A stretch of 64,000 nt of DNA from Escherichia coli (GTDB taxonomy: Bacteria; Pseudomonadota; Gammaproteobacteria; Enterobacterales; Enterobacteriaceae), in the NCBI RefSeq assembly GCF_046105845.1, contig NZ_CP151004.1. The stretch is one strand, 5' to 3'. Positions 1,754 to 34,489 of this stretch are shown piece after piece. The first letter of the stretch is position 1. Each line of letters begins with the position of its first letter. Position numbers and translations under genes: made by a program. The notes under the pieces are model-generated. The model was given only the letters and a program-made list of their open reading frames with translations, had not been told where the DNA came from and did not search any database.

Positions 1754-2520
1754 TGAGCAATTTATTAGGCCCCCGTGACGCCAACGGCATTCCGGTCCCG
1801 ATGACGGTGGATGAATCCATCGCCAGCATGAAGGCGTCGTTACTGAAAAAAATCAAACGTTCTGCCTACGTTTACCGCGTGGACTGCGGCGGCTGCAACG
1901 GCTGCGAAATCGAAATTTTCGCCACGCTTTCGCCGCTGTTTGATGCAGAACGCTTCGGCATTAAAGTCGTTCCTTCACCGCGTCATGCGGATATTTTACT
2001 GTTTACCGGCGCGGTCACCCGTGCAATGCGATCCCCTGCGCTGCGTGCGTGGCAGTCCGCGCCGGACCCGAAAATCTGTATCTCCTACGGTGCCTGCGGT
2101 AACAGTGGCGGGATCTTCCATGATCTCTACTGCGTGTGGGGCGGTACGGATAAAATCGTCCCGGTGGATGTTTATATCCCTGGCTGCCCGCCAACGCCTG
2201 CCGCCACGCTGTACGGCTTCGCGATGGCGCTCGGCCTGCTGGAGCAGAAAATCCACGCTCGTGGGCCGGGTGAACTGGATGAACAACCGGCGGAGATCCT
2301 GCATGGCGATATGGTGCAGGCGCTGCGTGTGAAAGTAGATCGCGAAGCACGCCGACTGGCGGGTTATCGTTACGGTCGTCAGATTGCCGATGACTTCCTG
2401 ACACAGTTAGGGCAGGGCGAAGAACAGGTTGCACGCTGGCTGGAAGCGGAAAACGATCCGCGTCTGAACGAGATTGTCAGCCATCTGAATCATGTTGTTG
2501 AAGAGGCGCGTATCCGATGA
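1753..2520 (+). CDS. hycG: Hydrogenase-3 small subunit
   Basis: 255 aa; 1-nt TGATG overlap with hycF; Cys-rich small-subunit motifs (CGGCNGC, GCPP). Confidence 0.92.
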
Positions 2521-2927
2521 GTGAAAAGGTGGTGTTCAGTCAACTGAGCCGTAAATTTATTGATGAGAACGATGCCACGCCCGCCGAGGCGCAGCAGGTG
2601 GTCTATTACAGCCTGGCGATTGGTCACCACCTTGGGGTTATCGATTGCCTGGAAGCGGCGCTCACCTGTCCGTGGGATGAATATCTGGCATGGATTGCCA
2701 CTCTGGAGGCGGGCAGCGAAGCCCGCCGCAAAATGGAAGGCGTGCCGAAATATGGTGAGATCGTCATCGACATTAACCATGTGCCGATGCTGGCCAACGC
2801 ATTCGATAAAGCCCGGGCAGCGCAAACTTCGCAGCAGAAGGAATGGAGTACAATGCTGTTAAGTATGCTGCATGATATTTATCAGGAAAACGCCATCTAT
2901 TTGATGGTGAGGAGATTGCGTGACTGA
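2517..2927 (+). CDS. hycH: Formate hydrogenlyase maturation protein
   Basis: 136 aa; ATGA overlap with hycG; operon position. Confidence 0.9.
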
Positions 2928-3390
2928 CGTTTTACTCTGTGTTGGCAATAGCATGATGGGCGATGATGGCGCAGGCCCGCTACTGGCGGAAAAGTGCGCC
3001 GCCGCGCCGAAAGGTCACTGGGTGGTGATTGACGGCGGTAGTGCACCGGAAAACGACATTGTCGCTATTCGCGAACTGCGCCCTACGCGACTGCTGATTG
3101 TCGACGCCACTGATATGGGGCTAAACCCCGGCGAGATCCGCATCATCGACCCGGATGACATCGCCGAGATGTTTATGATGACTACCCATAACATGCCGTT
3201 GAACTACCTTATCGACCAGTTGAAAGAAGATATTGGCGAAGTGATTTTCCTCGGCATCCAGCCGGATATCGTCGGCTTTTACTACCCGATGACCCAGCCG
3301 ATTAAAGATGCGGTGGAAACCGTTTATCAACGACTGGAAGGCTGGGAAGGGAATGGCGGATTCGCGCAGTTAGCGGTGGAAGAAGAGTAG
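2920..3390 (+). CDS. hycI: Hydrogenase-3 maturation endopeptidase
   Basis: 156 aa, N-terminus [22 protein letters not shown]; overlaps hycH end by 8 nt. Confidence 0.92.
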   Translation: MTDVLLCVGNSMMGDDGAGPLLAEKCAAAPKGHWVVIDGGSAPENDIVAIRELRPTRLLIVDATDMGLNPGEIRIIDPDDIAEMFMMTTHNMPLNYLIDQLKEDIGEVIFLGIQPDIVGFYYPMTQPIKDAVETVYQRLEGWEGNGGFAQLAVEEE

Positions 3391-3448
3391 TTCGTAGACA
3401 AACATGTTCACGTTTTGGAATTTGGACGTGCAATTGTGACGTGTAGAC

Positions 3449-3473
3449 GGGTGTTTACATATTGTGAACACCC
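3449..3473. promoter_or_regulatory. Inverted repeat GGGTGTT-N11-AACACCC upstream of the toxin gene; candidate antitoxin operator
   Basis: Perfect 7-bp inverted arms read directly in the sequence; a second related pair (tgttcac near 3406 / gtgaaca near 3464) lies nearby; about 85 bp upstream of the ATG at 3557. Confidence 0.35.
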
Positions 3474-3556
3474 GTGTGATCAACTACTATAGAAAAATAA
3501 ATCCGAAGGAATGGTAGTCCAGGTTTAGTCATTCAGGCGCTAATAAGGAAGTTAAA

Positions 3557-3868
3557 ATGCACATCATTTCTAAAGCGCCATTTGAAGAGTGTGCGCGCAA
3601 ATATCCTAACGACGCTCTGGCTCTACACTCATTGTATCGGGTTATTAAGGAAACGGATTTTTCTACACCAGAAGAAATGCGAACGGCGTTTCCCAACCTC
3701 GACAATTTTAGATATCGCAACAAATGGTACGTTCTGGATGTCGGCGGGAACAATCTTAGGGTTATTGCCTACATAAACTTTGTTAATAAGCGGTTCTTTG
3801 TGAAGCACATAACGAATCACGCAGAGTATGACAAACTGACACGTTACTACAGAGAGAACAAAGAATGA
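3557..3868 (+). CDS. HigB-family (RelE/ParE superfamily) mRNA-interferase toxin
   Basis: 103 aa; recognisable similarity to E. coli HigB (FPNLDNFRY...YVLDVGGNNLRVIA); SD aaggaag upstream; toxin-first order typical of higBA. Confidence 0.75.
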   Translation: MHIISKAPFEECARKYPNDALALHSLYRVIKETDFSTPEEMRTAFPNLDNFRYRNKWYVLDVGGNNLRVIAYINFVNKRFFVKHITNHAEYDKLTRYYRENKE

Positions 3869-4284
3869 CTGCTAATGCTGCACGCGCTGTTAAAGCAACA
3901 AGAGAACTGGTCAATGCAGTCCCCTTTCTGGGAGGTAGTGACTCAGAAGATGATTATCGTGAAGCACTGGAACTGGTCGAATATTTGATTGAAGAAGATG
4001 ACACCAATCCACTTATCGACTTTCTGGCGAGCCGCATTGCAGAATATGAAAACAACAACGAAAAGTTTGCCGAGTTCGACAAAGCCGTTGCAGCAATGCC
4101 GGTTGGCGTGGCGTTACTTCGTACGCTGATTGATCAACATAATCTGACCTATGCGGATTTGAAGAACGAAATCGGCTCTAAATCCCTGGTCAGTCAGATT
4201 TTGTCTGGACAACGATCCCTGACGATATCCCATATTAAGGCACTTTCAGCCCGATTTGGCGTTAAGCCGGAATGGTTTCTTTGA
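3865..4284 (+). CDS. HigA-family HTH (XRE-type) antitoxin
   Basis: 139 aa; start overlaps toxin stop (ATGA); C-terminal HTH-like segment (GSKSLVSQILSGQRSLTISHIKALSARFG) resembling HigA. Confidence 0.75.
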   Translation: MTANAARAVKATRELVNAVPFLGGSDSEDDYREALELVEYLIEEDDTNPLIDFLASRIAEYENNNEKFAEFDKAVAAMPVGVALLRTLIDQHNLTYADLKNEIGSKSLVSQILSGQRSLTISHIKALSARFGVKPEWFL

Positions 4285-4310
4285 TTTTGACTGATGCCAA
4301 ACGCCAGATT

Positions 4311-4335
4311 GCCCGATGCGCAACGCTTATCGGGC
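4311..4335. repeat. REP-like palindromic element
   Basis: gcccgatgcgcaacgcttatcgggc resembles the REP consensus; lies between the antitoxin gene and the ascB 3' end. Confidence 0.4.
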
Positions 4336-4362
4336 TTTCCTGGTTAGTGCGACAGTAGTTAC

Positions 4363-7253
<2,891 letters not shown>

Positions 7254-22867: not shown

Positions 22868-24008
<1,141 letters not shown>

Positions 24009-31708: not shown

Positions 31709-31781
31709 AAAAAGGCCACTCGTGAGTGGCCAAAATTTCATCTCTGAATTCAGGGATGATGATAACAAATGCGCGTCTTTC
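31709..31781 (-). ncRNA. micA: MicA (SraD) small regulatory RNA
   Basis: Minus strand reads gaaagacgcgcatttgttatcatcatccctgaattcagagatgaaattttggccactcacgagtggccttttt, i.e. the MicA sequence with its terminator hairpin. Confidence 0.9.
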
Positions 31782-32381: not shown

Positions 32382-32414
32382 AGGCCGGGCTGGTGAAATC
32401 ACCGCCCGGCTTTT
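32382..32414 (+). terminator. Intrinsic terminator shared by convergent luxS and the HD-kinase gene
   Basis: gccgggc-tggtgaaatcaccg-cccggc hairpin followed by tttt; the minus-strand stop is at 32416..32418. Confidence 0.75.
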
Positions 32415-32415
32415 A

Positions 32416-33528
32416 TTACCTGTCAGTCACCCAATATTCCACACTATGTGCTTCATCAGGTTGAGGAACTTCCAGCCTTGAGGCCATCCGCATCACGACC
32501 GCTTCAGGAACTGCATACTCGCGTCTGGCATTTTGCTGCTTCCATTGCTCCCATGGCACTTCCAGATAAACGATTTTTACTCGTGCGCCGTAAGCCGTAA
32601 ACAGACTGATGAGCTGGCTACGCAGCTGGCGGGTAATGTTCGTCGCATTCCAGATGAACGGCTTTTTCTGGCGTAAAAAAACGCGCGCCTCTTCTTTTGC
32701 CTGTTGCACAATACGCCCGGTGGCGGTTTTGTCGTCCGGGCTGGCATTGATTCGCCGCCGCATATCATCAAGGCTGATAACGTCCATTCCCAGGCACAGT
32801 TCACTGATATAGCGATCTTTGCCCATACCCGGTAAGCCACACAGCAAAATAACCTCAAAAGATTCAGCCTCCCAGGGAACAAAATCAGGAGAACTTTGCT
32901 CATGAGTCAGGTAGTGCCAGCGTGCGGAATCAGACACGAACGGGCGCGCTTTTCCCCAGCATTGTTGCTCATGGCAAAACAGCTCGAACAGATCGATGCG
33001 TTCCAGCATTGATTGCTGGTCCGGGCTTTGGCGACCAAGCAGATCGGCACGAGCAAGCAAAGCGAGCAAACGCGTGTCGATGCGCATTGCAGCTGTGAGC
33101 AGCAAACGCTCCGGTTCCGGACGTTCCAGTAACCATAGCGGTAACCCATGCAGACGCACCAGCGCAACAATTTGCTCGCGTAGCACGAACGGCGTTGGGA
33201 TATCGCGCCATAAAATTTGTCGGGCCGTCAGTTCGCCCCGACGAGCATGGCCAGGCGACTGAATACGTCCGTTTTCCTGCACGGTAGTGCTGCGCTTTTC
33301 AACATCATGCAATAACGCCGCCGCCCATAAAACTTCCTGCTGTTGAGCGGGGAGTTGCTGGAATTCTGGCAGAGTAACGAGGGCGTTAAGTACCATTTCG
33401 GTATGCACGCCGACGTCGCCTTCACCATGATGCTCCGGGTCTTGTGGCGTGTGATGCATCTCCTCAACCCAACTGAAACGCTGGCGTAGCGCCGACCAGC
33501 GTTTATCGTCGGTAAGCTGCCAAATCAT
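32416..33528 (-). CDS. HD-domain phosphoesterase fused to a P-loop polynucleotide-kinase-like domain (putative end-healing enzyme)
   Basis: 370 aa; N-terminal HD signature ([11 protein letters not shown] ... AALLHDVEK ... GHARRG ... RLHGL ... ARADLLGR); C-terminal Walker-A-like [12 protein letters not shown] with Walker-B-like DVISLDD; start overlaps the upstream ligase stop (ATGA). Confidence 0.65.
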
Positions 33529-34232
33529 GATTGTTCTCCATAGGTGAACTCATGGGCCATCCGCGCCCGTTGCCAGTGGCGTTTCCAGTGTACGGTAGTT
33601 TTGACATGATTTTTGCGTACATACTTGAAGACGTTATGCGAAAAGTCAGCGACGGAAAACGCATCACGATTCCGGCTGACAATGCCTTCCAGCGTACAGG
33701 GTTGCCCGGTTTGTGTATCCCAGGGATCGAACGCGCCGCGCGCATTGGTCAGCGCCAGAAAATCACGTTGCCAGCTTTTTTCATCATTCCCCGGCTGCGG
33801 GCCGGAGATTTCGGGAACGCAGGGGAAATCAAACAGAGCGGCGTAAAACTGCACCTCTTCCCAGCTCAGCCACATATCCTGGCAGCGAACGGCAAACAGA
33901 TAAAAATCCTGCTCCAGGGCGCGATATTCAATCGAATGGACGGCATAAAGATTTTCACCAAACAACTCCAGATCGCCGAGATCGTTTTTCAGCAGTTGCC
34001 AGCGTTGGCGAATTTTATAGGTCCATGCCGACTGCGTAGGCGCGGCATGGGAACGGGCAAACACGCCGTAGCGGTTAAGGCAGTTATTTTCACCGTCGAG
34101 TTTTTCTGTGTGCACCAATTGCGTGATGGCCTGTAAATCCTGCCAGTAATCGGTGTTAATACGGTCATCGCTGGTGGTGCCAGGGGAGAAAGGATAATGC
34201 CAGGTTCTCCCGTATTTTCGTTGGGTATTCAT
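33525..34232 (-). CDS. ATP-dependent RNA ligase, Rnl2-like nucleotidyltransferase
   Basis: 235 aa; motif [10 protein letters not shown] (KxDGxN), motif III-like [11 protein letters not shown], motif IV-like EGIVSR, motif V-like FKYVRKNH. Confidence 0.65.
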
Positions 34233-34456
34233 AATAATCCATTATTTTGTGTGTAATAAATGTACGCCCGCGAGGGTGCGAGTTATGGGGTTAAAAGAAA
34301 AATGTGAGTATCACCCGCGAAAGCGAGGGCGAAGGAAAAAGAGAATTAACAACCTGAGCGAATGCTCAGAACCGGTTAATGGTGAATGGAAGAGTTTGGG
34401 GCGGCGAAAAGATACACCGAATGAGTGGATAAAACAACCGTTTGCAAAATGAGCAA

Positions 34457-34480
34457 ATAAAAAGGGAGCCGCAGCTCCCT
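34457..34480 (-). terminator. Intrinsic terminator of emrB
   Basis: Minus strand: gggagctgcggctccc hairpin followed by tttttatttg. Confidence 0.7.
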
Positions 34481-34489
34481 TTGACAACC

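Follow-up and report, generated by a model that had tools for sequence, protein, structure and literature searches.

Between luxS and emrB, the Escherichia coli chromosome analysed here carries two extra genes, one for a ligase-like adenylyltransferase reduced to its catalytic domain and one for a partner protein of the HD-Pnk type, and on balance we regard the pair as probably a heal-and-seal system for the repair of broken RNA. In the window, i.e., the whole stretch of 64,000 nucleotides under study, genes follow one another as expected for an Escherichia chromosome, in the order gshA, MicA, luxS, the two extra genes, emrB and emrA. To judge by its sequence, the ligase-like protein is the uncharacterised Escherichia member of the known DR_B0100 (LigB/DdrP) family and not a novel kind of protein. 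As a rule, an ATP-dependent ligase holds its substrate by means of an additional domain. This family does without such a domain, yet it combines a perfect active site with high identity across phyla and a constant end-healing partner, and two laboratories have sought its substrate since 2007 without success. What is at stake is a second, ATP-dependent route for rejoining RNA in bacteria, beside RtcB. Intact copies occur in about one fifth of the complete E. coli genomes, urinary and avian pathogenic isolates included; the cassette is present in ExPEC lineages and absent from K-12, which constitutes a natural null, and this natural presence and absence opens the substrate question to E. coli genetics in a tractable host.

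The ligase gene coincides exactly with one open reading frame, stop codon included, that starts with ATG on the minus strand. Its features are as follows:

33525-34232, minus strand: ligase-like protein of 235 aa, adenylyltransferase domain only, DR_B0100 family; 'RNA ligase family protein' in RefSeq
34164-34217, minus strand: family-specific N-terminal motif, aa 6-23; K6, Y7, R9, H12, S16, D22 and D23 at least 90% conserved in 60 diverse homologues, same motif in DR_B0100
34092-34103, minus strand: motif I, KLDG, aa 44-47, with K44 as predicted AMP acceptor; invariant, aligned with NgrRnl K170 and DR_B0100 K40
33951-33962, minus strand: motif III, FGEN, aa 91-94; E93 invariant, aligned with NgrRnl E227
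33924-33938, minus strand: motif IIIa, HSIEY, aa 99-103; Y103 invariant, H99, S100 and I101 at least 90% conserved
33672-33689, minus strand: motif IV, EGIVSR, aa 182-187; E182 and G183 invariant, V185 and R187 at least 90% conserved, aligned with NgrRnl E312
33612-33626, minus strand: motif V, KYVRK, aa 203-207, of the K-x-V-R type; K203 invariant, V205 and R206 at least 90% conserved, at the end of the Pfam model (171/171) and on beta-strand 201-205 of the AF2 model

All four motif strings quoted in the first-pass annotation are present in this frame. The Rnl2-like adenylyltransferase domain RNA_ligase (PF09414) spans residues 38-205 over essentially the full model (E 4.4e-28, model positions 2-171 of 171) and is the one Pfam domain of the protein; only 37 residues precede the core, the C-terminus lies 30 residues past motif V, and the AF2 model is a single compact domain. 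Domain analysis thus agrees with the earlier description of a minimal ligase that has a full motif set and no substrate-recognition domain. The occurrence of motifs I (KxDG), III, IIIa, IV and V in this order on an NTase fold places the protein in the covalent nucleotidyltransferase superfamily of ATP-dependent ligases and capping enzymes. In an alignment of 60 diverse stand-alone members, K44, D46, G47, E93, Y103, E182, G183 and K203 are invariant, and the N-terminal KYxRTxHxPxSPGxxxDD motif as well as a C-terminal HVxTxxHW tail are at least 90% conserved, so that the ligase observation is real and far beyond chance. By analogy with the homologous lysine of DR_B0100, K44 is predicted to be the site of lysyl-AMP formation. 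The comparison with Rnl2- and Rnl5-type ligases that had been proposed earlier holds for the catalytic residues, as the three NgrRnl (Rnl5) positions listed above align with motifs I, III and IV, and fails for the appendages, because both the OB domain of Rnl5 and the C-terminal domain of Rnl2 are absent. What the first-pass annotation overlooked is the strand of the gene, the fact that the family is already known and named, and that 'ligase' is a presumption for the family as a whole.

The family is large: a protein search gave 2157 matches, and a further one gave 1283 representatives at 50% identity. NCBIfam assigns no family to the ligase. A PDB profile search with the ligase family yielded only weak ligase matches (E about 1e-4), headed by a fungal tRNA ligase (E 1.7e-4), which indicates that there is no solved structure for this family; its nearest structural relatives are RNA ligases. 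An apparent homology to mollusc hemocyanins (single-sequence phmmer against PDB, E 3e-9, aa 79-166) was rejected as an artefact that sums many weak repeat matches.

The second gene of the cassette lies immediately downstream of the ligase gene and encodes the putative end-healing enzyme:

32416-33528, minus strand: HD-Pnk partner of 370 aa, N-terminal HD phosphoesterase and C-terminal P-loop 5'-OH polynucleotide kinase
33525-33528, minus strand: ATGA overlap of ligase stop and HD-Pnk start according to the ORF coordinates, suggestive of translational coupling
33304-33309, minus strand: HD dyad H74-D75 of HD-Pnk, invariant in 24 orthologues, as are H42, H94, H127 and D162
32818-32838, minus strand: Walker A motif or P-loop GLPGMGK, aa 231-237, of the HD-Pnk kinase domain; invariant, aligned to the P-loop of CthPnkp

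Both halves of an HD-Pnk, a metal-dependent HD phosphoesterase and a P-loop 5'-OH polynucleotide kinase, are recognizable in this protein. Pfam detects AAA_33 (E 1e-32) and, weakly, HD; NCBIfam gives likewise weak matches, on the one hand with the kinase of bacterial Pnkp and on the other with the HD portion of the CCA-adding enzyme; and in a weak PDB sequence match to the kinase of Clostridium thermocellum Pnkp, D254 and R257 face the catalytic Asp and Arg of CthPnkp, while GxxGxGK237 is invariant in the 24 orthologues.

Relatives of the ligase were collected from 100,044 species genomes with an alignment of nine sequences as query, and the best 80 of the resulting 301 loci, all from Enterobacterales and Bacteroidota and 61-98% identical to the window ligase, were analysed for gene neighbourhood. 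In each of these 80 loci a homologue of HD-Pnk follows the ligase directly on the same strand, and it is the sole neighbour conserved throughout; the two reading frames overlap in 58 of the 77 measurable pairs, 31 of them by the same four nucleotides. Ligase and HD-Pnk are therefore probably made from one transcript with coupled translation. The same linkage, together with the overlap at the ligase stop, supports the earlier suggestion that so small a ligase depends on a partner protein or a restricted substrate. A Tpt1 homologue was found within 6 kb in only one of the 80 loci and a linked PARG/macro gene in none. The Bacteroidota orthologues among the 80 share 61-68% of their ligase residues with the window protein, and between Enterobacterales and Bacteroidota HD-Pnk is 50-59% identical, values unusually high for such distant phyla. 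This level of sequence identity suggests that the two genes either were transferred horizontally as a cassette or are very strongly constrained.

In the pathway that we propose, K44 would attack ATP to yield enzyme-(lysyl)-AMP, a step that is well supported by the experiments on K40 of a homologue and by the invariance of motifs I, III, IIIa, IV and V. The kinase of HD-Pnk would convert 5'-OH into 5'-PO4 and its HD domain 2',3'-cyclic-PO4 or 3'-PO4 into 3'-OH, a division of labour that is based on domain homology and on homologues assayed in the literature. Finally, we infer that the ligase would pass AMP to the 5'-PO4, upon which attack by the 3'-OH would reseal the strand. HD-Pnk reportedly phosphorylates 5'-OH ends and removes 2',3'-cyclic, 3' and 2' phosphates, and homologues are said to exist in 11 phyla, often beside such a ligase. 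As the ligase has no appendage for binding nucleic acids, it would probably rely on HD-Pnk or on a specific broken RNA structure to capture its substrate for sealing; the likely substrate is RNA cleaved by nucleases of the ribotoxin type, whose products bear 2',3'-cyclic-P and 5'-OH ends. The sealing step of RNA heal-and-seal would thus be the most likely role of the ligase, and DNA a less likely target, since the nearest folds are RNA ligases, since family members are fused to 2H cyclic phosphoesterases and since no LexA box precedes the operon.

Several observations count against heal-and-seal repair of RNA. E. coli already has RtcB for cyclic-P/5'-OH ends. Among distant family members (about 30-35% identity), those encoded by plasmids and jumbo phages are often without HD-Pnk, and a linker-joined ligase and HD-Pnk modelled by AF2 with 24 paired orthologues (pTM 0.58, reduced pLDDT of the ligase, output without PAE or contacts) predicted no confident complex. 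Reproducible sealing activity is not known for any member of the family. [quoted passage not shown] 2007). The ligase-like protein of Runella slithyformis forms ligase-AMP as well and sealed none of the tested 3'-OH/5'-PO4 DNA and RNA substrates (Munir et al.). Hence, the lysine-to-alanine change, the adenylylation assay and the substrate tests proposed in the first-pass annotation have already been carried out on homologues (Blasius et al. 2007; Munir et al.), and their outcome, self-adenylylation without sealing of standard substrates, fits the idea of a partner- or substrate-restricted enzyme.

The same chemistry could also be directed at DNA, in which case HD-Pnk would clean the 3'-phosphate/5'-OH breaks left by oxidative or radiation damage and the ligase-like protein would seal them, possibly with a recruiting factor. 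HD-Pnk homologues reportedly act on DNA 3'-phosphate ends, too. Owing to the data from Deinococcus, DNA repair is a serious rival, even if we consider it unlikely. The DR_B0100-0099-0098 operon is radiation-induced and, as summarized in a review citing Kota 2010 and Schmier & Shuman 2018, loss of DR_B0098, the HD-Pnk of that operon, and in one study loss of DR_B0100, sensitises the organism to ionising radiation, which points to DNA and away from RNA. The review further describes conflicting radiation phenotypes of DR_B0100 mutants and one study with in vitro DNA ligation upon addition of DR_B0098 and PprA, to which the lack of DNA ligation in any combination used by Blasius et al. has to be opposed. 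Furthermore, the closest structural relatives of the ligase are RNA ligases and the fusion partners include RNA-specific 2H cyclic phosphoesterases. A LexA box was not found upstream of the ligase in the window, while the same search detects that of recA; this positive control is a perfect LexA-type box, CTGTATGAGCATACAG, at 22870-22885, about 60 nt upstream of recA (22932-24008). In addition, we know of no PprA requirement in E. coli, which likewise speaks against DNA as the substrate.

Alternatively, the protein may not be a conventional joiner of 3'-OH and 5'-PO4 ends, but use its lysyl-AMP on 2'-PO4 ends of the Trl1 type, for a 5'-adenylylation end mark or on some other phosphorylated molecule, which we deem rather improbable. 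Such an acceptor would be in line with the adenylylation without ligation that two laboratories saw on standard substrates, with the fungal tRNA ligase as best, though weak (E 1.7e-4), PDB profile match, with the additional Tpt1 and MTase-HIT of the Runella cluster, and with the additional PARG-type macrodomain of the Deinococcus operon, which strips ADP-ribose from phosphorylated nucleic-acid ends. In the clade of the window ligase, however, Tpt1 is all but missing from the vicinity and PARG is absent, residues for all three classic ligase steps are conserved, and the HD domain is said to remove 2'-PO4 as well, which would destroy a Trl1-type substrate. A similarly low probability is assigned to a broader formulation, according to which the ligase is not an ordinary sealer and either is active only when docked on HD-Pnk as a substrate-binding domain in trans or uses lysyl-AMP on non-canonical ends such as 2'-PO4 junctions or an adenylylated mark. 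If this was true, the cassette would represent a bacterial pathway of a new type, devoted to repairing or modifying RNA, and 2'-PO4 junctions in particular would at last provide a natural substrate for E. coli KptA/Tpt1.

The following non-coding elements belong to the cassette or delimit it:

34461-34482, minus strand: intrinsic terminator hairpin of emrB, upstream cassette boundary, from a terminator scan
34233-34460, minus strand: non-coding conserved leader/promoter region that separates the ligase ATG from the emrB terminator
32384-32410, no strand assigned: GC-rich hairpin, then a T-run, where luxS and HD-Pnk converge; downstream cassette boundary, read from the sequence and distinct from the terminator that the 63-bp empty site contains

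Among 5426 complete E. coli genomes, 999 (about 18%) carry the cassette between luxS and emrB, always on the chromosome, and the others, K-12 MG1655 included, have a 63-bp spacer at this site. The same emrB-luxS position is filled in Escherichia, Klebsiella, Kosakonia, Phytobacter and Superficieibacter, the GC content of the cassette matches that of its flanks without any anomaly, and its borders show no target-site duplications, repeats or mobility genes; taken together, these features suggest a long-resident cassette that has been lost repeatedly, and not a recent insertion. With dN/dS values of 0.03-0.11 (0.08-0.17 for HD-Pnk), the ligase is under strong purifying selection. Two groups of ligase alleles exist in E. 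coli, 882 genomes having 90-95% and 117 having 95-99% nucleotide identity to the window, which represents the minority allele; the commoner allele is intact, e.g., in the ST131 urinary isolate uk_P46212, and its protein is 97% identical to that of the window. Occasionally, the cassette shows decay: the complete genome closest to the window is that of the soil strain E. coli VCSW7 (NZ_CP082357.1, 98.6% nucleotide identity), in which the ligase gene is annotated as a pseudogene with an internal stop (4226-4933 of the locus) and HD-Pnk is intact. A decaying or selfish remnant devoid of current function in E. coli, or a mobile defence or counter-defence element, is nevertheless very improbable: the limited occurrence, the internal stop in this one close relative and the homologues in jumbo phages that would agree with it are outweighed by the low dN/dS, the site shared by five genera, the matching GC content, the clean junctions, the intact copy in uk_P46212 and the fact that PADLOC anti-phage defence models returned no family for either ligase or HD-Pnk.

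Across Escherichia, Klebsiella, Kosakonia and Phytobacter the leader retains 70-78% identity, even though synonymous sites of the neighbouring gene have reached saturation (dS 1.2-1.4). Two of its elements are invariant, a hairpin at 34353-34370, CTGAGC-loop-GCTCAG, whose loop varies, and a UCCAUU with the potential to base-pair with AAUGGA at the ribosome-binding site; searches of the leader gave no Rfam family, no covarying pair in RNAalifold and no match to the sigma-70 consensus. Further away, the MicA sRNA (31710-31781, minus strand; Rfam RF00078, 83.9 bits) resides between gshA and luxS as in K-12.

Beyond the two-gene cassettes, 27 longer proteins contain this ligase domain, fused to a P-loop kinase in 12 cases, to a 2H 'Swiss Army Knife' cyclic phosphoesterase in seven and to a PTP-type phosphatase in four. 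The homologue P0176 (650 aa) has a P-loop kinase between two RNA_ligase domains, and other long homologues join the ligase with 2H-SAK and PTP-SAK phosphoesterase domains, i.e., they are 'Swiss Army Knife' repair proteins. Jumbo or huge phages encode domain-only ligase homologues of 28-45% identity, e.g., Caulobacter phage CcrSC gp219 (locus coordinates 2548-3627), which bears a 150-aa N-terminal extension, and Xanthomonas phage XacN1 ORF260 (locus coordinates 2983-3633). BLAST revealed no HD-Pnk homologue adjacent to the phage ligases; phrog_6931 matches HD-Pnk over its full length. In a distant relative on Bacillus cereus plasmid NZ_CP085507.1 (locus 2511-4124) the gene order is reversed, with a 322-aa AAA-family ATPase encoded directly upstream of the ligase. 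The name '2'-5' RNA ligase' attached to several homologues in databases is a mis-annotation, as fold and motifs are those of an ATP-dependent nucleotidyltransferase; the window ligase has no Pfam 2H match and lacks the two HxT/S motifs on a 2H fold that characterise LigT/2H phosphoesterases.

Comparison with established ligase families sets the E. coli protein apart from all that are defined by an appendage. In the Rnl2 family (T4 Rnl2, kinetoplastid REL1), to which the isolated N-terminal domain of Rnl2 offers the closest comparison, step 2 and the recognition of nicks depend on an all-helical C-terminal domain that is absent here, and sequence identity is only about 15%. Rnl5 enzymes (Naegleria NgrRnl, Deinococcus DraRnl) are defined by an N-terminal OB-like domain, for which the few residues before the core of the E. 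coli ligase leave no counterpart, the match to 5cot covering NgrRnl residues 146-321 only. Neither the N- or C-terminal appendage domains of Rnl1, Rnl3, Rnl4 and Rnl6 (T4 Rnl1, Pab1020/MthRnl, CthPnkp-LIG, Trl1-LIG) nor the NTase plus OB architecture with motif VI of minimal ATP-dependent DNA ligases (Chlorella virus, Lig E) were found.

With regard to complete repair systems, the triad of ligase, P-loop polynucleotide kinase and 2',3'-end phosphoesterase is the same as in the fungal and plant tRNA ligase Trl1 (Rnl6) and in eukaryotic multidomain 'Swiss Army Knife' proteins, and the longer proteins that join this ligase domain with AAA_33 kinase, 2H-SAK and PTP-SAK domains resemble Trl1 as well. 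Unlike in Trl1, the activities are distributed over two polypeptides in E. coli, the phosphoesterase is of the HD instead of the 2H type, and the C-terminal domain of Trl1 LIG that defines Rnl6 is absent. Phage T4 Pnkp with Rnl1 and bacterial Pnkp/Hen1 differ in that their phosphatase is a DxD acylphosphatase or a metallophosphoesterase, whereas the E. coli pair has HD, lacks a Hen1 methyltransferase and includes a ligase devoid of any C-terminal domain, be it tRNA-binding or of another kind.

The closest parallels are bacterial. The repair cluster of Runella comprises the ligase-like protein, HD-Pnk, Tpt1 (a 2'-phosphotransferase) and MTase-HIT (Munir et al.); the latter two are extra compared to E. 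coli and, with Tpt1 near a single one of the 80 loci, atypical of the clade, and the orthology of the two ligases rests on architecture and gene order. In a tblastn search against plasmids, an 'RNA ligase family protein' on D. radiodurans megaplasmid MP1 was found to head an overlapping operon of ligase, TIGR02452 (PARG-like) and AAA ATPase genes that corresponds to DR_B0100-0099-0098. DR_B0100 is 36% identical to the E. coli ligase (E 3e-26, window aa 6-216 vs. 4-194), its K40 corresponding to K44, and shares the adenylyltransferase-only architecture, the N-terminal KYxxxxHxPxSPG..DD motif and the C-terminal HVxTxxHW tail, while DR_B0098 is 29% identical to the E. coli partner over the full length (E 1e-31) and the Deinococcus reading frames overlap, too. 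Full-length homology, a size of about 210-240 aa without OB or C-terminal domain and an operon shared with HD-Pnk, the marks of the DR_B0100 or HD-Pnk-associated domain-only family, are thus all present in E. coli. The Deinococcus operon resides on a megaplasmid, is radiation-induced and contains the PARG-type macrodomain gene DR_B0099 between the two others, whereas the E. coli cassette consists of two genes, is chromosomal, has no SOS box and encodes a ligase that is 25 aa longer.
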